Shown here in pieces: positions 3,557 through 60,991 of a stretch of DNA of 64,000 bases. Below the pieces are notes generated by a model. That model was not told the origin of the DNA, did no database searches, and worked only from the letters and a program-made list of their open reading frames with translations. Position numbers and translations under genes: made by a program. Origin of the DNA: an uncultured Actinomycetota bacterium (GTDB taxonomy: Bacteria; Actinomycetota; Actinomycetes; DATJPE01); contig CAWFYM010000001.1 of the NCBI GenBank assembly GCA_963820065.1, forward strand, positions 168,767-232,766. The letters run 5' to 3'. Within the stretch, counting starts at the first letter, position 1, and each line of letters opens with the position of its first letter.

Positions 3557-4639
3557 CTACGGGTTCAGCGCTGAGTGCGGCACGACCTGGTGACTCTGCG
3601 CGGATCGGCGGGCCGCCTCGAGGATCTCCAGGCCTCGAACGGAATCGCGAGGGTCGACCGGCGGGCTCACGGATGAATCGGTCAGCGCTCGGGCGAGCTG
3701 AGCGTAGAACGCGGGGTAGTCCCCGCTCAGCGAGGCGACGGGGACCCGTTCATCGCCGGTGACCAGCTCACCCCAGGCCTCCCGCGCGACGGCGCCCCAG
3801 CCTTGCGACGGCCGGGCACCCGCGCGCAGCGCCTCCTCCTGCCCGTCCAGTCCGGCCACGACGTAGGCCGATTCAGAGCCGAGCACACGGAAGCGGGGAC
3901 CAGGACTGCCGGCCACGGCAGAGGCCCACAGGTGCGAACGGGCTCCGGACGCGTGCTCGAGCGCGATGAACACGTCGTCGTCTGCGGCCTGTGGCGAGCG
4001 ACGGCGATCGATCTCGGCGTAGACCGACACGACCGGTCCGAGCAGGAGCAGGGCCTGGTCGACCAGGTGACTGCCCAGGTCGAACAGGAGGCCGCCTGCT
4101 GCGTCGGGGTCGTCGCGCTCGCGCCAGCCGCCGCCAAGAGCCGGACGCCACCGCTCGAAGCGTGACTCGAAGCGGCGTACGTCGCCGAGCGTGCCGGCCC
4201 CGACCAGTGCCTGGATGGTCCGGAAGTCGCTGTCCCAGCGTCGGTTCTGAAACGTCGTGAGCAGCACGCCTGCTGATGAGGCCCCTTTGACGAGGTTGTC
4301 CGCCTCACCCGAGGTGGGGGCCATCGGTTTGTCGATCACGACCGATACTCCGGCCTCGATCGCCGCGCGCGCCAAGGTCACGTGCGTCGCGTTGGTCGTC
4401 GCGACCACCATCAGGTCGAGGTCGAGTCGCAGCAAGGCGTCGACGTCGTCGACGACGGTTGCGCCCGGATGATCCGCCTGTGCCTGGCTGATCCGAGCGG
4501 AGTCGCGCGTGACGATGCCCACGAGGGCGAGGTCGAGGTTTGCCGCGATGAGTGGCGCGTGGAACACCGCGCCGGCCAAGCCGTAGCCGGCGAGACCGAC
4601 ACGGAGGGGCTGATCGGCGCCTTCGGGTTGGGTTGTCAT
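3557..4639 (-). CDS. Gfo/Idh/MocA family oxidoreductase
   Basis: Start MTTQPEGADQPLRVGLAGYGLAGAVFHAPLI (Rossmann GxGxxG) followed by EAGVSVVIDKPMA, typical of this family. ATG at 4639 overlaps the TetR stop (ATGA). The longer track ORF to 5041 is a junk extension overlapping the TetR gene. Confidence 0.8.
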   Translation of the reverse strand: MTTQPEGADQPLRVGLAGYGLAGAVFHAPLIAANLDLALVGIVTRDSARISQAQADHPGATVVDDVDALLRLDLDLMVVATTNATHVTLARAAIEAGVSVVIDKPMAPTSGEADNLVKGASSAGVLLTTFQNRRWDSDFRTIQALVGAGTLGDVRRFESRFERWRPALGGGWRERDDPDAAGGLLFDLGSHLVDQALLLLGPVVSVYAEIDRRRSPQAADDDVFIALEHASGARSHLWASAVAGSPGPRFRVLGSESAYVVAGLDGQEEALRAGARPSQGWGAVAREAWGELVTGDERVPVASLSGDYPAFYAQLARALTDSSVSPPVDPRDSVRGLEILEAARRSAQSHQVVPHSALNP

Positions 4640-5521: not shown

Positions 5522-6469
5522 GTGAGCCGCTTCGTCATCGTCGGCGCCGGAATCCTGGGCAGCCGCACCGCACTGGCCTTGGCCGAGGCCGGGCACGACG
5601 TCCGCCTGGTCAGCCGTCGGGGTCGCGGTCCGGCCCATCCTCGAGTGGAGGCGGTGGCCGCCCCCGCCCAGGACCCCGCCCGGCTGGCCGAGCTGACCGC
5701 CGGGGCGCGCGCGCTCTACAACTGCGCCAACCCTGACTACTGGACTTGGGAGACCGAGTGGCCGCCGCTCGCGGCCAGCCTGCTCACTGCGGCTCGGCAG
5801 ACGGGAGCGACGCTGGTCGCGGCCGGGAACCTGTACGGCTACGGGCAGGGCTCGGGTCCGATGAGCGAGAGCACCCCGCTGGCGACGACCTCCCGCAAGG
5901 GCAGGGTGCGCGTCCAGATGTGGGAGGACATGCTCGCGGCTCAGACCGCCGGCGACGTCCGCGTGTGCGAGCTGCGGGCCTCGGACTACTTCGGCCCGGG
6001 GGCCCACGTCAACGCGCACCTGGGGGAGCGGGTCTTTCCTCGCGTGCTCGCAGGCAAGAAGGCGCAATTCGTCACCGGGAACGAGCGGGCCCCGCACAGC
6101 TGGACCTACGTCCCCGATTTCGTCTCGGCGCTGGCGCTGGCCGGAACCGACGAGCGGGCCTGGGGCCGTGCGTGGCATGTGCCCACCGAGGCGCCACGCA
6201 CGCCGGGCCAGGCCGTCAGCGACATCGCGTCGGTCGCTGGAGTGCGCGACCCCGGCTACCAGGCCTTCCCGAATCCGGTCCGAGCGGCCCTGGGCGTCTT
6301 CCAACCCTTCATGCGTGAGCTCGGCGAGGTCCGCTACCAGTTCAACGAGCCGTTCGTCCTCGACTCCTCGGCGTGGACGGCGACGTTCGACGTCGGTCCG
6401 ACGCCGTGGCGGGAGGCGCTCCTGGCCACCGTCGAGGACGTGCGCGACGGGGCTTCGGCCGCGGCTTAG
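5522..6469 (+). CDS. NAD-dependent epimerase/dehydratase family (atypical SDR) protein
   Basis: GTG at 5522 is preceded by GAAGGAG. Product VSRFVIVGAGILGSRTALALAEAGHDVRLVSR has a Rossmann N-terminus. The ORF upstream of the GTG has no RBS and runs through the operator region. Confidence 0.7.
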   Translation: MSRFVIVGAGILGSRTALALAEAGHDVRLVSRRGRGPAHPRVEAVAAPAQDPARLAELTAGARALYNCANPDYWTWETEWPPLAASLLTAARQTGATLVAAGNLYGYGQGSGPMSESTPLATTSRKGRVRVQMWEDMLAAQTAGDVRVCELRASDYFGPGAHVNAHLGERVFPRVLAGKKAQFVTGNERAPHSWTYVPDFVSALALAGTDERAWGRAWHVPTEAPRTPGQAVSDIASVAGVRDPGYQAFPNPVRAALGVFQPFMRELGEVRYQFNEPFVLDSSAWTATFDVGPTPWREALLATVEDVRDGASAAA

Positions 6470-7739: not shown

Positions 7740-8744
7740 ATGGCGACACCGAACGCGGCGGCGCGAGGTCTGTCGGGGGAGGGAACGAACTCGGGCGCCT
7801 TCACCGGGATGGACTGGCTCTTCCTCATTGGCCCGGCCGCGATCTGGGGGTCGTCTTTCGCGCTGATCGCCGTTGGCCTCGACTCCTTCCCCCCGACCGT
7901 TCTGACGTTCCTGCGCCTGTTGTTCGGGTTCGTGGCGATCTCGCTGGTGCCGAAAGCGCGCAAACGCATCGCGCGCTCCGACTGGCCCCGCGTAGCCCTC
8001 GTGGGCGTGTTCTGGATGGCCGTACCGCTGTCGATGTTCTCCCTTGCTGAGCAGTGGGTCTCCTCCTCGACAGCGGGGATGATCAACGGGGCCACGCCGA
8101 TCACGGCGCTGTTGGTGGCGACGCTGGCCCTGCACCGCCGCCCGGGACGGCTCCAGCTGCTCGGCATCCTCGTCGGCTTCGTCGGCATCGTGTTCGTGGC
8201 CCTTCCCGACCTCGGCAAGGGCTCCGACGAGGCCCTCGGAGTGCTCCTCCTCGTGATCGCGGTGTCGTGCTACGGGATCGCGCTCAACCTCACGGTGCCG
8301 CTCCAGCAGCGCTACGGGTCGCTTCCGGTTTTCTGGCGAGCTCAGATCGTGGCCCTGGCGCTCACCGCCGTTCCAGCGGCTCTGCACGTCGACGAGTCCA
8401 CGCCTCAGGTCGGGGCCTGGTTGGCGCTCGTGGTGCTCGGCGTCCTGGGCACGGGTCTGGCGTTCGTCCTCGCCGGCAACCTCGCGGGACGGGTAGGTGG
8501 GGCTCGCGCGTCGATCATCACGTATTTGATCCCGCCGTGGTCGATCATGATCGGCGTGCTGTTCCTCGACGAGACGGTCGCCGTCGTGGCGCTGGTGGGC
8601 ACCGCCGTCGTCTTGTGCGGGGCCTTCTTGGCCACCCGTCGTGACGATGCTGCTCGGCCGAGCTCGGCGGCGAGCCCTGGCCCCGAAGGGATGGATGTGG
8701 CGGCCATTCCTACCGAACGGGAAGGTCCGGCCGGGCCTTCCTGA
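7740..8744 (+). CDS. EamA/DMT family transporter
   Basis: 10-TM protein with duplicated EamA-like halves. The true start may be the internal ATG at 7809 (MDWLFLIGPAAIWGSSF). Confidence 0.75.
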   Translation: MATPNAAARGLSGEGTNSGAFTGMDWLFLIGPAAIWGSSFALIAVGLDSFPPTVLTFLRLLFGFVAISLVPKARKRIARSDWPRVALVGVFWMAVPLSMFSLAEQWVSSSTAGMINGATPITALLVATLALHRRPGRLQLLGILVGFVGIVFVALPDLGKGSDEALGVLLLVIAVSCYGIALNLTVPLQQRYGSLPVFWRAQIVALALTAVPAALHVDESTPQVGAWLALVVLGVLGTGLAFVLAGNLAGRVGGARASIITYLIPPWSIMIGVLFLDETVAVVALVGTAVVLCGAFLATRRDDAARPSSAASPGPEGMDVAAIPTEREGPAGPS

Positions 8745-9645
8745 TGGCCGCAAGCGCGCGGATCTGATCCGGCCCGACCCGGCAACAGCCGCCGATCATC
8801 CGCGCACCTGCATCCAGCCAGCTCGTGACCTGGGAGATCGTGAAGCCCGGGTCGCCGTGCCACTGGCGCTCGTCGGCGTCCCATGCTTCGCCGCTGTTGG
8901 GGTAGGCGACGATCGCCTTGCTCGTGATGCCGGCGGCTGCAGCGACCAGGGCCTCCACGTCATGGGGCGCCGAACAATTGACGCCGACGGCGACAACGTT
9001 GGAGACCTCCTCGGCCATGTCGAACGCCTCCAGCACGTCCTCGCCCCGGCGAGTCCGTAGTCCCTCACAGGTCAGGGACAGCCAGGCCGGGACACCGAGA
9101 TCGGCCACCTCGGCCAGCAGTGCCTCAGCTTCGGCCAGCGACGGGATGGTCTCAAGGGCGAGGAGGTCTGGCTCTGCGCTGGCCAGCACCTCGAGCCGCC
9201 GCCGATGCCACTGGCGTAGTTCGGGGACTCCGACGTCGGGGCCGTAGTCACCCGTGTATTCCTCGCCGTGGGCGAGCATGGCGCCGTACGGCCCGACGGA
9301 CGCAGCGACCCAGCGGGGCGTGCCGTGGTCTGGCTCGTCGCCCGCGGCTTGCCGCGCCAACTCGACGCTGCGCTGCAAGAGGCGGTCCGTGGCGGTGGCG
9401 TCGTACCCGGCGGCGGCCAGCCCCTCGTAGGACGCCTGATAGCTCGCGGTGGTGGCCACCTGCGCTCCGGCGGAGAAGTACGACCTGTGCACCGCGCGGA
9501 TCTCGTCGGGTGTCTGCGCGAGCAGTCTCGCTGACCACAGGTCACTGCTCAGATCGTGTCCGCGGGACTCCAACTCGGTCGCCAGGCCCCCGTCGAGCAC
9601 CACCAGCTGATCGCCAGCGCCGAAGCTTTGAGGGGACGTCGTCAC
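8710..9645 (-). CDS. mmuM: homocysteine S-methyltransferase
   Basis: LVVLDGGLATELESRGHDL..., ...AVGVNCSAPHDV..., ...MIGGCCRVGPDQIRAL match the MmuM/Pfam02574 motifs. GTG at 9645 gives about 311 aa, similar to E. coli MmuM. The track ORF extends to 9732. Confidence 0.8.
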   Translation of the reverse strand: MTTSPQSFGAGDQLVVLDGGLATELESRGHDLSSDLWSARLLAQTPDEIRAVHRSYFSAGAQVATTASYQASYEGLAAAGYDATATDRLLQRSVELARQAAGDEPDHGTPRWVAASVGPYGAMLAHGEEYTGDYGPDVGVPELRQWHRRRLEVLASAEPDLLALETIPSLAEAEALLAEVADLGVPAWLSLTCEGLRTRRGEDVLEAFDMAEEVSNVVAVGVNCSAPHDVEALVAAAAGITSKAIVAYPNSGEAWDADERQWHGDPGFTISQVTSWLDAGARMIGGCCRVGPDQIRALAAIRKARPDLPVR

Positions 9646-10212
9646 GTGGCCAGGATCCCACCTCGTGGGACTCCGGCCGTGGTTGAAGAAAGATCTTGAA
9701 CTTTCTGCGAACAACCTCTTGCGCGCCAGCACGCTTACCTGTTGAATCTCCCCACGTCACCGGAAGCGGTGGTCGGAGCCGGGGAAACCTTAGGCGCCGC
9801 AAGGGAATTCCGGCTTGCTGGAGTTCTTGCGCGGAGGGCACCATGCGCACGAAGGATCAGGGGAGACCCTGACCCGTCGGAGGCGGTGCGCCGCCGGTCA
9901 CAGTGGACGGAGACCGGTCGAGGGAGCCACTGGAGTCCTGGCAACGGGACGATCGAGGTGAAGCCGACCAGGGCAAGGCCCCGCGAACTCATACTTCGCG
10001 GGGCCTTGTTCCATGATGGGGGCGGCATCCCGGCGGACCGGGGAGCGACACGCGGGCCAGCCGACAGGGGCGCGGCGCTGGAGACCCGTCGAGTCAGGAC
10101 TTCTGAGCGCCGCGGCGGAGGCTTGGTACGAACGGCTGCCGGGCCTGGTCCGGCCGGGCGTGGCAGACTCGCGTGCAGCGGGGGACCCCCGCGGCCGATC
10201 GGAAGGGTGTTT

Positions 10213-12528
<2,316 letters not shown>

Positions 12529-12830
12529 CCGCCCCACCACCCCCTCCGCCCCCCACACGTGATCATGCGCAAATGGCCCCTGCCGTCCGGTCGGCCGCGC
12601 CCCGCCCGCCCGTCCACCCACCCCCCTTCGTGATCATGCGCAGATGGCCCCTCCGAGATCGCTCGGTCAGGGGCCATCTGCGCATGATCACGAAGGGGGA
12701 CGGTGGTCGTGGGGGAGGTTGAGCGTGGGCAGAGGGGCCATCTGCGCATGATCACGAGGGATGGTGGGTCGGGGTGATGGGGATGGGGATGGGGATGGGG
12801 CGCCCGGGGTCACGCGGGGTCACGCGGGGG
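12529..12830. repeat. Composite palindromic repeat element, copy A: C-rich arm, 2 direct core copies, loop, 2 inverted core copies, G-rich/G4 arm
   Basis: Core GTGATCATGCGCA(A/G)ATGGCCCCT at 12558-12580 and 12628-12650; its reverse complement at 12668-12690 and 12732-12754. The inner pair forms a roughly 31-bp perfect hairpin around loop ccgagatcgctcggtc. GGGGATGGGGATGGGGATGGGG lies at about 12775-12796. Confidence 0.85.
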
Positions 12831-12831
12831 A

Positions 12832-48469: not shown

Positions 48470-48574
48470 CCCGCCCCGCTCATGCCCCTGGGCCCCCGCC
48501 CAAACCCCTGAGCCCTCGCCCCTCTGGTGGACGTCTTGATCGCGGGACTTCGGTCTCGCGGGGAGGATGTCTTC

Positions 48575-48871
48575 ATGTCAGGTCAACGTCGCAGATTTAC
48601 TCCGGCTTATCGGCGGGAGGCGGCTCATCTGGTGATCGATACCGGGCGGCCGATCGCGGTGGTCGCTCGGGAGATCGGTTTGGGTGAGCAGTTGTTGGGT
48701 CGGTGGGTCGCGGCCGAGCGAGCGCGGATGGCTGACCCGCCGGACGTGCTCGGGGAGGACGAGCGGGCCGAGCTGGCCCGTTTGCGTCTGGAGAACACCG
48801 AGCTGCGGATGGACCGGGAGTTCCTGAAAAAAGCTGCGGCCTTCTTCGCGACCGAACCCCAGAGCCGGTAG
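48575..48871 (+). CDS. IS3 family transposase OrfA (HTH)
   Basis: MSGQRRRFTPAYRREAAHLVIDTGRPIAVVAREIGLGEQLLGRWV...LENTELRMDREFLKKAAAFF. RBS GGGGAGG. Confidence 0.85.
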   Translation: MSGQRRRFTPAYRREAAHLVIDTGRPIAVVAREIGLGEQLLGRWVAAERARMADPPDVLGEDERAELARLRLENTELRMDREFLKKAAAFFATEPQSR

Positions 48872-48882
48872 AGGCTTACGCG

Positions 48883-49761
48883 GTGATGGACGCGGAGAAG
48901 GCGGACTTCGCCCTCGACCGGATGGCTGAGCTGCTCGGGGTGTCCCGGTCGGGCTACCACGCTTGGGTTCGGCGGCTGGCCGCCGGTCCGAGCCGCGCTC
49001 AGCAGCGTCGGACCGACTTGACCGTGAAGATCGCGGCCTTCCACGCCGATTCCGATGCGGTCTATGGGTCCCCGCGGATCCTGGCCGACCTGCGCGAGGA
49101 CGGTGAGCGGGTCTCCCGCAAGACCGTCGCGAAGCTCATGCGCCAGGCGGGGATCGCCGGGATCAGCCCACGCAAGTTCACCCCGGTCACCACCCTGGCC
49201 GGCCCGGACCCGTGTCCGGTGCCCGACCTGGTCGGGCGGAAGTTCGACCGTGGTAGCCCGAACGTGGTCTGGACCAGCGACATCACCTACCTGGGCACCG
49301 ACCAGGGCTGGCTCTACCTGTGCGCGGTCCGCGACGCGTGCTCACGGCGCGTCCTGGGCTGGGCCATCGAGGACCACCTCCGCACCGACCTCGTCGAGGC
49401 TGCCCTGCGTATGGCGGTGACCTTGCGCGGTCACCTACCGGTCAAAGTGATCTTCCACGCCGACCGCGGCACCCAATACACCTCGACTCAGATCGCCGAG
49501 GTCATCAAAGACCTGCCCGTGCTGTCCTCGATGGGCCGCACCGGGGTCTGCTGGGACAACGCCCCTGCGGAGTCCTTCTGGTCCACGTTCAAAACCGAGT
49601 TCTACGACCGGCGCCACTGGGCCACGAAGGCCGAAGCCAAGCAGGCGTCAGCCCGCTGGATCGAGGAACGCTACAACCGCAAGAGACGCCACTCCTCGAT
49701 CGGCATGCTCACACCCGTACGCTTCGAAGCACTCAACCCTCAGACGGCACAAGCCGCCTGA
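48883..49761 (+). CDS. IS3 family transposase OrfB (integrase core DDE), probably expressed as an OrfAB fusion by -1 frameshift
   Basis: rve domain with DDE residues (...WTSDITYL..., ...HADRGTQYTS..., ...CWDNAPAESFWSTFKTEF). It is in the -1 frame relative to orfA and open back to the A6G run. Confidence 0.85.
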   Translation: MMDAEKADFALDRMAELLGVSRSGYHAWVRRLAAGPSRAQQRRTDLTVKIAAFHADSDAVYGSPRILADLREDGERVSRKTVAKLMRQAGIAGISPRKFTPVTTLAGPDPCPVPDLVGRKFDRGSPNVVWTSDITYLGTDQGWLYLCAVRDACSRRVLGWAIEDHLRTDLVEAALRMAVTLRGHLPVKVIFHADRGTQYTSTQIAEVIKDLPVLSSMGRTGVCWDNAPAESFWSTFKTEFYDRRHWATKAEAKQASARWIEERYNRKRRHSSIGMLTPVRFEALNPQTAQAA

Positions 49762-49775
49762 ACGCCTGTCCACCA

Positions 49776-50060
49776 GATGGGGTCAACCCCACCATCGTTC
49801 GTGATCATGCGCGGATGGCCCCTCTTGCCGCGCTCGGACCAACCTCCTAGGCCCCCGCTGGCCGCTGATCATGCGCGGATGGCCCCGCTTGCCCCTCGCC
49901 GCCACCGCCCGCCCGACCCGCCCCTCGGCGGCTAGGGGCCATCTGCGCATGATCACGAAGAGGGTGTGGGGTGTCCGATGGGGTGTGGGGTGTGGGGGTG
50001 TGGGGTGAGTTGGGGCTTTGGGAGTCGCGGGGGGTGGGCGTGCGACGATGTCGCGGCCGT
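49776..50060. repeat. Composite palindromic repeat element, copy B (right part; left C-rich arm at about 48468-48524 is separated from it by the IS3 element)
   Basis: Forward cores GTGATCATGCGCGGATGGCCCCT (49801-49823) and GCTGATCATGCGCGGATGGCCCC (about 49864-49886); inverted core AGGGGCCATCTGCGCATGATCAC (about 49934-49956); then G-rich GGGGTGT repeats at 49962-50040. Confidence 0.8.
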
Positions 50061-50808: not shown

Positions 50809-51909
50809 TCAGTCCTCGGGGCCGGAGCTGCCGCCGAACAGGATCTCGTCCCAGCTGGGCACCGAGGCGCGCCGCCCGGCTCGTTTGGGGGACCGGCCCG
50901 TGGTGGGGCGCAACGGGCTGTCCTTCTCGGCTTCTGGCGGCGACTCGGGTTCGGAGTCATCCATCGAGTCGGTGCCGTCCACGACAGCGCCGTGGTCGTC
51001 AGCGTCATCGGCCGGAGCCTCGATCGGCGGGGCATCGACGTCATCGTCGGTGGTGCTGAGGGTGGTGGTACTGAGGGTGGTGGTACTGAGGGTGGTGTCG
51101 CTGACATCGGTGTCGCTGGCGTCGGCGACATCGATGTCCCCATCGATGGCCCCATCGTCGACCACATCGGGCACGGCTGTGAGCCGCGGTGCCCCAGGGG
51201 AGGCCGGTGGGAATTCTGGGGCGTCTGAGTCATCTGGGTCGTCTGAGGCGGGATCGTTCTCAGAGGCGGCTGGGCCTGCTGGTGCGGTTGACGCCTTCTG
51301 TGACCGACCGCGCGACCCACGCTTCGGCTCGGGCACGGCGCGCTCGTCCCCGATGAGCCAGTCGGCCTCGTCGTCGTGGGGTTCGAGGGTCCGGCGCTGG
51401 TGGTCGAACAGCCAGGTCGCCGAGCGCTCCCGACCTCCGTGGACGTAGTCGAGCCGCACCGCCCAGCGGCCATCTTCGCGGCGTCGTGCGTCCCAGGCCA
51501 GGTCGTCGGGTTCGACTCCGCGGGCCCCGAGCCGCTCCAGCACCAGGGCATCGAGCTGGTGGGCCGCGGAATCGGTGACTCGACGAACGTTGGTGCGCTG
51601 GGCCAGATCGGCGATGTACCAGCGTTCTTGCAGCACCGGTCCCTCGAAGCGACGGATCCGCTCGACCGGGACCTGGGAGGCGATCGCGATCTCCTCGGCG
51701 GTCTGGCCGGCCCTGATGCGCGACTGGATCTCGCGGGGGGTCAACTGGTTCTCGAGCTCGATCTGCAGCTGGCCCAGACGCGCTCGATCACCCCGCATGG
51801 CCGCGTGCACGCGTTCGTCGAGCGGAAGACCGTACGGCGTGCCGTCGGTGCCTTCGAGCAGCAGGCGCGAGCCGTCGTCGCTCACGCCGAGCAGCCGTAG
51901 GTGCTCCAT
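50809..51909 (-). CDS. sepH: septation protein SepH (DUF3071)
   Basis: MEHLRLLGVSDDGSRLLLEGTDGTPYGLPLDERVHAAMRGD is the DUF3071 N-terminus. It has an acidic disordered middle with a (TTLST)3 tandem repeat and a conserved C-terminus RRASVPSWDEILFGG. The track ORF to 52065 is a 5' extension. Confidence 0.8.
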   Translation of the reverse strand: MEHLRLLGVSDDGSRLLLEGTDGTPYGLPLDERVHAAMRGDRARLGQLQIELENQLTPREIQSRIRAGQTAEEIAIASQVPVERIRRFEGPVLQERWYIADLAQRTNVRRVTDSAAHQLDALVLERLGARGVEPDDLAWDARRREDGRWAVRLDYVHGGRERSATWLFDHQRRTLEPHDDEADWLIGDERAVPEPKRGSRGRSQKASTAPAGPAASENDPASDDPDDSDAPEFPPASPGAPRLTAVPDVVDDGAIDGDIDVADASDTDVSDTTLSTTTLSTTTLSTTDDDVDAPPIEAPADDADDHGAVVDGTDSMDDSEPESPPEAEKDSPLRPTTGRSPKRAGRRASVPSWDEILFGGSSGPED

Positions 51910-58632: not shown

Positions 58633-58932
58633 GTGGCAACCGACTACGACACCCCCCGCAAGACCGACGACGAGCTCAACGAGGACAGCATCGAGGAGCT
58701 CAAGGCCCGTCGCGCAGACGCCAGCTCCGGAGCCGTCGACGTCGACGAGACCGAGCTCGCGGAGAACCTCGAGCTGCCCGGCGCCGACCTGTCCAACGAG
58801 GAGCTCTCGGTGCGGGTGCTCCCGCGGCAGTCCGATGAGTTCACGTGCTCCCGGTGCTTCCTGGTCCACCACCGCACCCAGCTGGCCAGCGCGAAGAAGG
58901 GTCAGCTCATCTGCCGGGAGTGCGCAGCCTGA
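58633..58932 (+). CDS. DUF4193 domain-containing protein
   Basis: (V)ATDYDTPRKTDDELNEDSIEELKARR... ending ...EFTCSRCFLVHHRTQLASAKKGQLICRECAA. GTG after GGAGG. Conserved actinobacterial family near dut. Confidence 0.75.
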   Translation: MATDYDTPRKTDDELNEDSIEELKARRADASSGAVDVDETELAENLELPGADLSNEELSVRVLPRQSDEFTCSRCFLVHHRTQLASAKKGQLICRECAA

Positions 58933-58952
58933 GAGGGGGAAGGCTCACGTCC

Positions 58953-59861
58953 ATGTCCCGGATCTCGCGCCTTCGCCGCTCCCGCCCCGATGAGTTCTCC
59001 GGGGTCGGCGCGAAGCCCGCAGGAGATGACGGGTGGTCGGCTGACGACGATGCCCAGCTGGGGGAGCTGCTCGGCCGGTTTGCGGTCTCCGCGGAGGACG
59101 GCGAGATCGGCTCCTCCGACGACCGGCTGGTGTTCGTGTGGGCCCAGGTGGCTGCGGCGCTCCTGCGCTCCGGGCGTTCGGCTGGGGCAGCGGCGATCAC
59201 GAGCGGCCGCTGGATGGCCGACCAGCTGATCAGCGCGGCGCCGCACCTTCCGGTCCGCGATCTGCCGACGCTGAGATCGCACTACCGAGACCTGCAAGGC
59301 GACGAACTCGCGGATGCCCTGGTGCGCAATGCCGTGCTGGCCACGTCGGGCGTCGGGATCGCGGGAGGGGCGCTGTCGGCGGTCAAGTGGTTCGCGCCGG
59401 TGACACTCGTGACCGTTCCCCTGCAGATCGCGGTCGAGTCGTTGGCCGTGGCTGCGGTTGAGATCAAGCTCGTGGGTGAGCTGCACGAGATCTACGGCGT
59501 CCCGGTCCGCGGGACACCGACCCAGCGTGGGCTTGCCTACTCCACGGCGTGGGCCAACCGTCGTGGTGTCACCTCGCTCGACCCGTCCGTCCTCCCCGTC
59601 GGGCTTGGCCTCGTCGCCCGACAGCGCATCCAGCGCAGGCTCCTGGTGAGCGTCGGGCGCGGGACAGGCACGGTGGCTCCGATGCTGCTCGGCGCGGCGT
59701 ACGGCGGATGGGTCAACCACCGCACGACCCAGTCGCTCGCCGATGTCCTTCGGGCCGACCTTCGCCGGGGGCGGCCGCTGACCGGGGGGCTGGCTGGCCG
59801 GATCGCGCACGGGGTGCTGTCCTCGGAGCCTCGGCCGCCGGCGTCAAACCCCAGTCGGTAG
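58953..59861 (+). CDS. hypothetical protein (302 aa; no recognised family)
   Basis: ATG after GAGAGGGGGAAGG. MSRISRLRRSRPDEFSGVGAKPAGDDGWSADDDAQLGELLGRF... Its central hydrophobic segment AVLATSGVGIAGGALSAVKWFAPVTLVTVPLQIAVESLAVAAVEIKLV suggests membrane association. High GC3. Confidence 0.5.
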   Translation: MSRISRLRRSRPDEFSGVGAKPAGDDGWSADDDAQLGELLGRFAVSAEDGEIGSSDDRLVFVWAQVAAALLRSGRSAGAAAITSGRWMADQLISAAPHLPVRDLPTLRSHYRDLQGDELADALVRNAVLATSGVGIAGGALSAVKWFAPVTLVTVPLQIAVESLAVAAVEIKLVGELHEIYGVPVRGTPTQRGLAYSTAWANRRGVTSLDPSVLPVGLGLVARQRIQRRLLVSVGRGTGTVAPMLLGAAYGGWVNHRTTQSLADVLRADLRRGRPLTGGLAGRIAHGVLSSEPRPPASNPSR

Positions 59862-59920: not shown

Positions 59921-60163
59921 ATGGCCAGCTCGAAGGCGAACACCGCAGTCTTCGCGGTGACGGCCATCGTGGCGACCCCGATCGCCCGCAAGCTGACCAC
60001 GGTGGTCTGGACGGCGGCGACCGGTAAGGCCTCGCCGGAGAGCGTCGATGATCCGGACGAGCGACTGGGTGAGGCCGTGGCCTTCGCGGTCTTGGCCGGA
60101 GCGACCGCGGGGCTTATCCGGATGTTGCTCAACCGCAACGCCCGCAAGCTCCTCGGCGCCTGA
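59921..60163 (+). CDS. DUF4235 domain-containing protein
   Basis: MASSKANTAVFAVTAIVATPIARKLTTVVWTAATGKASPESVDDPDERLGEAVAFAVLAGATAGLIRMLLNRNARKLLGA. RBS GAGGAGGGG. The track ORF from 59549 is a junk extension. Confidence 0.7.
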   Translation: MASSKANTAVFAVTAIVATPIARKLTTVVWTAATGKASPESVDDPDERLGEAVAFAVLAGATAGLIRMLLNRNARKLLGA

Positions 60164-60500
60164 CCCACCCCTCCGCCCAACCCCACCCGCTCGTGATCAT
60201 GCGCAGATGGCCCCTGTCGGGCCGCGTGCCGCGCCGCGCAACCCCAACCCCCCTCGTGATCATGCGCAGATGGCCCCTATTTTCCGGTGCCGGGGCCTCT
60301 AGCCGTCGGTGGCGTCGTGGTGCTGCACAGGTGCCCGCCGCTTCGTCGCGGTTCCTGTGACTCGATCGCTTGGGTGCTGTCCGCAGTCCCACAGGCGCGG
60401 AAGTACGGGCCATTTGCGCATGATCACGGATGGGTGTGGGTCTAACTGGGGAGGATCAGCGGGGGACCAGGGGCCATCTGCGCATGATCACGAGGGGGGT
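60164..60500. repeat. Composite palindromic repeat element, copy C: C-rich arm, 2 direct cores, 130-bp central segment, 2 inverted cores, G-rich arm
   Basis: GTGATCATGCGCAGATGGCCCCT at 60193-60215 and 60257-60279. Inverted copies are GGGCCATTTGCGCATGATCAC (about 60408-60428) and AGGGGCCATCTGCGCATGATCAC (60469-60491). The stop codon of the convergent DUF3093 gene lies inside the last inverted core. Confidence 0.85.
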
Positions 60501-60991
60501 GGTGCTGGGGGGCGGGCAGCCTCGAGGGCGGCGACGAGGGCCTCGGGATGGCGCGTGGACACATACCAGTACGGCGCTGGGTCTGCCGCGTCCGCCACCT
60601 CAACCCGGACGGCGGTCGGCACCCAGCTGCGGAGGTACAAGTAGGCCCGGGGATCAGCCCCGGGGCCTCTCAGCCAGCGCGCGGCCGCGGCGTCGAGAGC
60701 CACGGCGGCACCCGCTTGGGCTAGGGGCAACCGGGCCCGCCCCGCGCGAAGCGTCGCGTCTTCGACGCTGACCCGCGCGCTCGTCGCTCGCAGCCCCAGC
60801 ACCACCCCCACACCACAGCCAAGCAGCACCACCAGCCCTGCCCACGGTCCGAGCGCGGCCTCGATCGCTACCGCGAACACGGCGACGACGCCCAGCGCCA
60901 CGACCCACAGGCCTGGGGGGGCCGGAATCGACTCGCGAAAAGCCACGTCACGCGAGCCGCTGGCCGCGTCGCCTGTTCCACCACCCGCCAT
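60488..60991 (-). CDS. DUF3093 domain-containing protein
   Basis: Two N-terminal TM helices, then ...RAYLYLRSWVPTAVRVEVADAADPAPYWYVSTRHPEALVAAL, matching DUF3093 (Rv2698-like). The start may be internal. Confidence 0.7.
   Translation of the reverse strand: MAGGGTGDAASGSRDVAFRESIPAPPGLWVVALGVVAVFAVAIEAALGPWAGLVVLLGCGVGVVLGLRATSARVSVEDATLRAGRARLPLAQAGAAVALDAAAARWLRGPGADPRAYLYLRSWVPTAVRVEVADAADPAPYWYVSTRHPEALVAALEAARPPAPPPS

Follow-up and report, generated by a model that had tools for sequence, protein, structure and literature searches.

A previously undescribed interspersed palindromic repeat that entered a convergent gene junction and supplies the end of a DUF3093 gene in an uncultured actinomycete

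REP (repetitive extragenic palindromic) sequences of Proteobacteria, with their bacterial interspersed mosaic element (BIME) and REPIN arrangements, are short conserved intergenic units mobilized by RAYT. They lie mostly 3′ of genes, often in convergent gaps, and form clusters of opposed orientation in which pairs fold into stable hairpins. REP sequences are targets for the insertion of insertion sequences (ISs) (PMC1525189), and their documented roles are those of partly Rho-dependent attenuators and mRNA stabilizers, the REP325 element of E. coli being a partly Rho-dependent terminator as well as an mRNA stabilizer (bioRxiv 10.64898/2026.03.23.713779). The Tuberculosis Rho-independent terminator (TRIT; Gardner et al. 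2011, PMC3152330) is an actinobacterial hairpin of strongly conserved sequence, palindromic and bidirectional, which occupies a narrow position by stop codons, from about −8 (~8 nt inside the coding end), and for which the authors also inferred an unknown sequence-reading factor. Miniature inverted-repeat transposable elements (MITEs) and small modular repeats, such as Correia/NEMIS and the BOX, RUP and SPRITE elements of Streptococcus pneumoniae (PMC3184786), are non-coding, 100–350 nt in length and bounded by terminal inverted repeats. Here we describe a repeat family in a stretch of 64,000 nt from an uncultured Actinomycetota bacterium (contig CAWFYM010000001.1, positions 168,767 to 232,766), referred to below as the window. 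Our focus is copy C, an element of ~345 bases (60164–60508) that occupies the entire gap between two convergent genes, encoding a DUF4235 protein (plus strand) and a DUF3093 protein (minus strand). The family is a new one within the known kind of interspersed intergenic palindromic repeats; it is not a new kind of system.

The gene order around DUF3093 (DUF3710, dUTPase, 4HBT thioesterase, DUF3093, DUF4235, DUF4193) is kept in relatives, in several of which the DUF3093 and DUF4235 genes abut. Their stop codons overlap by 4 nt (CTAG) in locus L014, and gaps of 1 and 10 nt separate them in L017 and L016, respectively; the window has a gap of 324 nt, wholly made up of copy C sequence, which is therefore an insertion. 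The C-terminus of the DUF4235 protein (...RKLLGA-stop) is equally long in L014, L016, L017, L018 and the window, so copy C begins right after the DUF4235 stop codon. No core of the repeat, as defined below, was found at the junction loci of L014, L016, L017 or L018. At the level of sequence comparison, these loci establish that copy C entered a previously gap-free junction, and, as the original prediction implied, the overlap between the element and the DUF3093 stop codon is not ancestral. The L018 junction (8469–10043, on the L015 contig) holds a degraded DUF222-type (REP13E12-like) insertion of 1.57 kb, and the DUF3093/DUF4235 junction is therefore a recurrent landing site for unrelated mobile DNA.

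The conserved part of the DUF3093 protein ends at Pro161 (60509–60511), and the protein itself ends in ...EAARPPAPPPS-stop. Residues 162–167 (PAPPPS) are encoded by 60492–60508 together with base 60491, and the TGA is the complement of the TCA at 60488–60490, within the TGATCA of the last inverted core (core 4), just as had been read from the sequence originally; core 4 contains this stop codon and the third base of the Ser167 codon (60491). The codons for Pro-Pro-Ser and the stop lie within a perfect inverted repeat of 32 nt (60247–60278 and 60469–60500, 100% complementary), and the three codons ahead of these are in the adjoining G-rich arm. In a comparison of 122 DUF3093 proteins, the tails beyond the conserved ...AAR(P) range from 0 to ~25 residues, and the PPAPPPS tail occurs once, in the window's own protein. 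The nearest orthologue, P0002 (76% identity), and P0009 have a stop directly after ARP. Given that the tail codons are situated inside the inverted repeat and its arm, and that the tail is private to the window, the tail and stop are read from element sequence; the alignment demonstrates that the last six codons of DUF3093 and its TGA are derived from the element. A coincidental overlap, which the original prediction proposed to assess by aligning homologues, is not supported by this comparison. The presence of a stop within the core needs no special cause, because one of the three frames entering the core from outside reads TCG TGA. Certain members of the MITEs and small modular repeats, the Rickettsia palindromic elements being one example, are incorporated into reading frames.

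Two histories would fit this gene end: the insertion may have replaced the old end at a tight junction, or the TAG after Pro161 may have been lost later. The original prediction held that the element was either recruited as coding sequence or inserted so as to recreate a stop; the element-derived end stands, whilst the list of two routes was incomplete, as later stop loss is a third. In this third route copy C would first have lain wholly downstream of a TAG following Pro161, and a later small change removing that stop would have extended translation by six codons, to the first in-frame stop, which is in core 4. We consider this a tentative proposal, somewhat short of an even chance; it concerns the origin of the overlap only, and is compatible with the explanation of copy C that we prefer below. 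The closest orthologue, in locus L013 (76% identity), has CTA (TAG) exactly where the window has TGG, and the local sequences, GCTAGGGGCGGG against GCTGGGGGGCGGG, differ by a single substitution plus one additional G. A G-rich stretch of 36 nt lies behind the L013 stop and aligns loosely with the right arms of copy C, and P0009 likewise ends ...AARP-stop. However, the L013 gap is short and of low complexity, which makes its homology to the arms insecure, and the contig terminates in the last codons of DUF4235. Additionally, the opposite change, a new stop arising in L013, costs equally many events.

The repeat family is defined by a 23-nt core, GTGATCATGCGCAGATGGCCCCT. Allowing up to 3 mismatches, we found 11 matches to the core in the 64-kb window, where none were expected from 100 dinucleotide-preserving shuffles. 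The 11 units form three intergenic clusters with opposed orientations (copies A, B and C), and an nhmmer profile built from them detected no further copy in the window. On its own strand, each core is preceded by a variable C-rich tract and then, directly 5′, by CCCYYTC. The building block is accordingly a C-rich tract of 20–50 nt, variable in sequence, plus a near-invariant module of ~30 nt, CCCYYTC-GTGATCATGCGCAGATGGCCCCT. Two direct blocks ~64 nt apart face one or two inverted blocks, so that a whole copy is a long imperfect palindrome, with terminal inverted repeats in the form of arms of 31–40 nt that are 80–100% complementary; lone cores are asymmetric and not self-complementary. The five doublets have this architecture in common, with core-to-core distances of 71, 64, 64, 63 and 64 nt. 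When the doublets were aligned, the two cores had pairwise identities of 96.5% and 91.3%, and the spacer that separates them had 47.8%.

Copy C consists of two direct cores, a centre of 126 nt and two inverted cores, all four cores being matched at ≤3 mismatches (Table 1). This is the arrangement originally described for the element, including its C-rich left arm (60164–60192) and G-rich right arm (from 60492), with small corrections: the positions of the first and last cores (60193 and 60469) held, but the second direct core begins at 60256 rather than 60257, the third core at 60405 rather than about 60408, and the central segment (60279–60404) falls short of the 130 nt first given. The central 126 nt had no second copy, either in the window or in the other loci compared, and Rfam gave no significant match. 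We dropped the idea that this segment is a second repeat or a gene remnant, as it showed no sequence match and no convincing open reading frame (ORF).

Chance similarity, or an assembly artefact in the form of fold-back chimeras in a long-read metagenome assembly, has to be considered for any such structure, since the apparent source is a metagenome-type assembly and palindromes are a known class of artefact at contig ends. Neither fits the 11 cores found against none expected, nor the three separate internal loci with differing spacers and intact flanking genes. Moreover, an identical core with its flank is present in an independent genome assembly (L001), and a remnant occupies the orthologous site of copy A in a third data set (L019). 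We regard this explanation as vanishingly improbable and effectively refuted.

Table 1. Features of copy C, its flanking genes and the other copies of the repeat in the window
Feature	Position	Strand or length	Remarks
DUF4235 gene	59921–60163	+	Pfam PF14019, E=9e-15; TGA 60161–60163, then copy C directly
Copy C, left outer C-rich arm, cccacccctccgcccaaccccacccgctc	60164–60192	+	Sequence, C-rich tract scan
Copy C, core 1, GTGATCATGCGCAGATGGCCCCT	60193–60215	+	0 mismatches
Copy C, left spacer, C-rich at its end	60216–60255	+	Core-to-core spacing 63 nt
Copy C, core 2	60256–60278	+	0 mismatches; with 9-nt 5′ flank pairs perfectly with core 4
Copy C, central segment	60279–60404	126 nt	Unique
Copy C, core 3	60405–60427	−	Inverted, 2 mismatches
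Copy C, right spacer, plus-strand G-rich	60428–60468	−	Core-to-core spacing 64 nt
Copy C, core 4	60469–60491	−	Inverted, 0 mismatches
Copy C, right outer G-rich arm	60492–60508	−	Outer boundary uncertain, 60500 to 60508
DUF3093 gene	60488–60991	−	167 aa; Pfam PF11292, E=1.9e-38; domain residues 18–156
Copy A	12529–12831		Two direct and two inverted cores, inner pair 16 nt apart; convergent gap
Copy A cores	12559–12581, 12630–12652, 12669–12691, 12733–12755	+, +, −, −	
Copy B	48470 to ~50053		Two direct cores and one inverted core; between co-directional genes
Copy B cores	49801–49823, 49865–49887, 49934–49956	+, +, −	Second core with 3 mismatches
Copy B, left C-rich arm	48470–48508 plus 49792–49800		IS-split
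Copy B, right G-rich arm	to ~50053		
IS3-family insertion sequence	48509–49791	+	Within copy B left arm; separate from the repeat

Copies A and C both lie at convergent gene ends, as had been pointed out in the original prediction. Copy A is flanked by an aldo/keto reductase gene (plus strand) and an MBL-fold hydrolase gene (minus strand), and its arms run from the stop codon of the former to 2 nt short of the stop codon of the latter. Copy B lies between a YjbR-like gene and a thymidine kinase gene, both on the plus strand. Each of the three left arms begins immediately behind a stop codon, and a stop codon lies within the right arm of copy C; together with the right arm of copy A, five of the six cluster ends abut or include one. 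C-rich and G-rich arms as a general trait of convergent gaps was a candidate that we dropped, as the other convergent junctions of the window are without them.

The arms have several features of their own. They hold 9 of the window's 16 canonical G-quadruplex motifs, always antisense to the incoming gene, including a minus-strand motif at 60164–60188 in the left arm of copy C. Perfect short tandem repeats of slippage type are present in the G-rich arms of copies A (12756–12831) and B (49957–50053), namely (GATGGG) × 4.2 at 12776–12800, (CGGGGTCACG) × 2.5 at 12805–12829 and (GGGTGTG) × 6.7 at 49962–50007. The best word common to the arms of different copies was the 11-mer CCCCTCCGCCC, in the left arms of copies A and C, which 89 of 2000 shuffles equalled (p ~0.045); robust homology between the arms of different copies was dropped as a claim, as the shared 9–11-mers scarcely exceed shuffled controls. 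The conserved Ala-Arg-Pro codons of DUF3093, which on the minus strand read GCC CGC CCC (window 60509–60516), and the opening of the left arm of copy A (12529–12535) have the heptamer CCGCCCC in common, a match that may be accidental in sequence rich in C or may reflect microhomology at the site of insertion.

The IS3-family element within the left arm of copy B comprises orfA (48527–48871, HTH_Tnp_1) and orfB (48883–49761, rve), with imperfect terminal inverted repeats of ~24 nt (TG...CA). Its target duplication is ambiguous (CCC versus CCA), and its position recalls the IS elements that target REP sequences.

Two further observations concern the neighbourhood of the repeats. An ORF of 338 aa without a Pfam match (58845–59861) lies between the DUF4193 and DUF4235 genes, and an unannotated gene of ~300 aa occupies the same position in relatives (L016, 2294–3199; L017, 2296–3195). 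In the window a 15-nt tandem repeat, GGTGGTACTGAGGGT × 3.3 (51049–51097; 97% matches), lies inside the DUF3071 gene, where it encodes repeated STTTL in the low-complexity C-terminal half.

Compared with the systems outlined above, the repeats of the window have in common with REP/BIME clusters many extragenic copies in opposed clusters 3′ of genes (11 units in three clusters), and an IS3-family element in one arm. They differ in that a REP unit is an imperfect palindrome of ~20–40 nt that folds alone, whereas the present unit is not palindromic; in that direct doublets face inverted doublets with a ~64-nt period, rather than simply alternating; and in the long, variable C-rich tract that belongs to each unit. 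They come from an actinomycete, and within the 64 kb no RAYT gene was seen. The placement is TRIT-like, with the DUF3093 stop inside core 4 and arms that begin 0–2 nt from four other stops. However, a TRIT is a single short hairpin reported only in Mycobacterium, whilst the present element is modular, 200–345 nt in length and has C- or G-rich arms; no mycobacterium is among the nearest named relatives of the proteins in the window. The likeness to TRIT is one of behaviour. Rfam scans returned no match at the gathering threshold over the whole window. At an E value of up to 1, copy C gave a single match, 'hya' (18.7 bits versus a threshold of 56.8), which we took as chance.

Like MITEs, the repeat varies in its presence at orthologous sites (L014, L016 and L017 have an empty junction C, and the cores of site A are lost in L019), and like BOX it is modular with a variable number of units. 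Unlike MITEs, it shows conservation confined to the ~30-nt module, not extending over the whole element. In the genome, metagenome, viral, plasmid and phage collections searched, no parent IS with matching ends was found. Target-site duplications were absent from copies A, B and C, with the ends placed either at the cores or at the tips of the arms; beside the cores the bases (YTC/GAR) are inverted and not direct. A CRISPR array was excluded: two direct repeats per side face inverted copies, the C-rich spacers are weakly alike, and no cas genes were present among the window ORFs scanned. The distinguishing architecture is thus a non-palindromic core, doublets with a ~64-nt period and C-rich arms. 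By analogy, the element would work most like REP/BIME clusters and TRITs, and would be built somewhat like modular MITEs such as BOX.

Folding and composition bear on what such an element could do. Whole copies fold into long hairpins of far greater stability than shuffled sequences (z = −6.6 for the plus strand of copy C, −7.0 for its minus strand and −9.6 for copy A), and in copy A the two inner cores pair in a near-perfect hairpin of ~36 base pairs (−78 kcal/mol, z = −14.5). The single 32-nt module gave −3.6 kcal/mol (z = +0.56), and 140 of 200 shuffles folded equally well or better. Read from outside in, all six halves have a C/G ratio of 1.8–3.6, the 99th percentile of 100-nt windows being 1.84, and 33 of the 39 most skewed windows of the 64 kb fall in element halves. 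Each half presents, in the direction of an incoming gene, a stretch of 100–160 nt with C>G, then strong palindromes. In the RhoTermPredict model, a Rho-dependent terminator is a C>G rut region followed by a pause palindrome (bioRxiv 10.1101/2022.06.01.494293). The halves of the repeat would resemble such terminators, with C>G above the 99th percentile and then strong palindromes, but ordinary Rho-dependent terminators are not repeated sequence families.

We favour, at about an even chance, the explanation that copy C belongs to a lineage-specific, non-coding interspersed palindromic repeat which entered the junction and would act there as a two-way terminator or 3′-end protector. In such a mechanism, a transcript leaving DUF4235 or DUF3093 would expose an unstructured, C-rich, rut-like stretch on which Rho could load. 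RNA polymerase would then transcribe the inverted half, and a very stable hairpin would form that can pause the polymerase; the finished hairpin could later block 3′ exonucleases and so protect the 3′ end. Copy C would thereby be a two-way, Rho-assisted terminator or pause site insulating the two convergent genes. A role of this Rho type, or in 3′-end protection, would be plausible from the composition and predicted folds, and the terminator or RNA-end role put forward in the original prediction is no more than compatible with the data. RhoTermPredict looks for this pairing of features, and REP325 of E. coli has been shown to combine the two roles. No sigma-70-like promoters were found at copies C and A.

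Several points weigh against this explanation. A search for intrinsic terminators (a GC-rich stem-loop plus a U run) gave no sites at copies C and A, and neutral insertions, too, survive best in convergent gaps. Copy B is not between convergent genes, and no gene runs into its inverted block. In Mycobacterium tuberculosis, TRIT and other predicted hairpin terminators match only 2–4% of mapped 3′ ends (bioRxiv 10.1101/2022.06.01.494293), so that a hairpin where a gene ends is weak support for termination. The arms of different copies are only weakly similar in sequence, and the description of the family draws on a small sample, three copies within 64 kb. Finally, mobility is inferred from presence and absence only, as no target-site duplication, no partner gene and no closely related copies in other genomes were found.

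An alternative is a selfish or neutral palindromic repeat that has no host function, for which convergent gaps and stop-adjacent sites are those of least harm, the DUF3093 extension is a tolerated accident, and the C-rich arms and core serve only their own propagation. An unrelated DUF222 insertion at the same junction in L018 accords with this, as do a different palindromic repeat in the aldo/keto reductase/MBL hydrolase gap of another relative, with a second copy 2.6 kb away, and the loss of the site A cores from a sister lineage with no visible consequence. The slippage-type microsatellites in the arms and the variability of DUF3093 tails, which lie outside the Pfam domain, also speak for it. 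However, cores at 91–97% identity beside spacers at ~48% require either continuing activity or selection, every half shows an extreme and symmetric C>G skew when read from outside in, and five of the six element ends abut or include a stop codon. On balance we find a repeat wholly devoid of host function rather unlikely.

The contrast between cores and spacers also raises the question of what keeps the core constant. We infer that a sequence-specific factor, either a mobilizing enzyme or a host protein, may read it, because the cores are near-invariant beside drifted spacers and are gone in the sister lineage. Hairpin function alone would be insufficient to account for the conservation, since it permits compensatory drift. 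On another reading, the cores would be double-stranded DNA sites for a sequence-specific protein and RNA structure would be incidental: they could be repeated subterminal sites like those of Tn7, Mu or IS21, left in a deletion derivative of a transposon, or an array for a nucleoid or regulatory protein. The asymmetric cores, the single module without self-complementarity (z = +0.56), a core sequence that is invariant and not co-varying, and site spacings of 63–64 nt, about six helical turns, are consistent with protein binding; with TGATCA set aside, the remaining TGCGCA...TGCGCA ends read TG...CA like DDE transposon tips. On the other hand, no transposase or partner gene was found near any copy among the window ORFs scanned, the sole transposase in reach being that of the unrelated IS3-family element, and neither a larger core-bounded element nor a parent IS with matching ends was found in the public genome, metagenome, viral, plasmid and phage collections searched. 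Target duplications are lacking, as noted above, and a C-rich tract stands before inner and outer cores alike. We judge this reading quite improbable.

A bolder reading would make the repeat a mobile, self-contained two-way terminator cassette, pairing a C-rich Rho-loading tract with a core read by a dedicated sequence-specific factor, that spreads to gene ends, rewrites last codons and stops, is kept unchanged in one lineage and decays in sisters that lack the factor. This is speculative, and we think it a long shot. If it were true, the boundaries of transcription units in this actinomycete would be made in part by a mobile element and its partner protein.

The orthologous site of copy A offers a view of the age of the family. 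L019 is a contig from the sample with the closest DUF3093 orthologue, and its MBL hydrolase is 90% identical to that of the window. Its gap between the aldo/keto reductase and MBL hydrolase genes is 79 nt in length and comprises a C-rich arm, GATCACGAAGG and a G-rich arm; the cores are lost. GATCACGAAGG corresponds to the last 6 nt of the core plus flank, an exact match of 11 nt to the module, and we read the L019 gap as a probable copy whose palindromic middle was deleted. With a remnant at this site in L019, the family predates the split of the window organism and the L019 organism, and the window's genome alone has retained intact, near-identical cores. The ends of metagenome contigs L013 (1686–1736) and L021 (3311–3373) lie 51–63 nt past the genes flanking sites C and A; such contig ends in the closest relatives would fit assembly breaks at repeats.

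In the more distant L020 locus, on the L016 contig, the corresponding gap is 279 nt in length and contains a different palindromic repeat with a second copy 2.6 kb off. This hairpin repeat consists of CGAACGGGGCGATC, a loop and GATYGCCCCGTTCG, with flanks CGAGTGGTTG/CAACCACTCG (3780–3850 and 6415–6462), one copy being in the convergent gap and the other upstream of citrate synthase. We considered the L020 gap as a degenerate orthologue of copy A and dropped this, as its centre is a different local repeat and arm composition alone is shared. Local repeat families have thus repeatedly colonized the convergent gaps of this clade.

Beyond the window, the exact core 22-mer occurred once, in one genome, among 185,579 species representatives, and the family is nearly private to the genome of the window. 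In the other genome, the uncultured Actinomycetota assembly of locus L001, the module stands alone beside a C-rich flank, with an OsmC-like gene on one side and a DUF222 fragment on the other. The module (within 400–600) is ~140 nt upstream of the DUF222 gene fragment, whose lower-GC leader resembles that of the L015/L018 DUF222 element (GTGCAG...TTTCG and GACTGTCGG are shared). Cores and DUF222 elements could be either linked or merely sharing permissive sites; a link of the repeat to DUF222/REP13E12-type elements was dropped in favour of co-occupied permissive sites, as DUF222 genes are absent from the window and cores from L018. A degenerate core gave 11 matches in metagenome contigs, all of them chance matches to unrelated sequence, several in protein-coding regions, and a scan of viral contigs gave none. 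BLAST of copy A against plasmids and phages found nothing, a protein search with four open translations of the core, aimed at spurious ORFs called across copies, returned no candidates, and a literature search for the core sequence found no paper.

In many respects the locus is ordinary, as such repeats in convergent gaps and their occasional fusion to reading frames are already well known. Practically, gene callers and assemblers will stumble on palindromes of this kind. The findings nevertheless document an interspersed repeat family not described before, from an uncultured actinomycete of high GC content, within a group in which few REP-like families have been characterized and transcription termination is poorly understood, and they provide a clean case in which a repeat furnishes the end of a protein-coding gene and relatives have the site empty. 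Invariant beside freely drifting spacers, the core is a handle for finding the factor that reads it; should there be such a factor, similar reasoning may hold for the mycobacterial TRITs, whose sequence conservation is unexplained.

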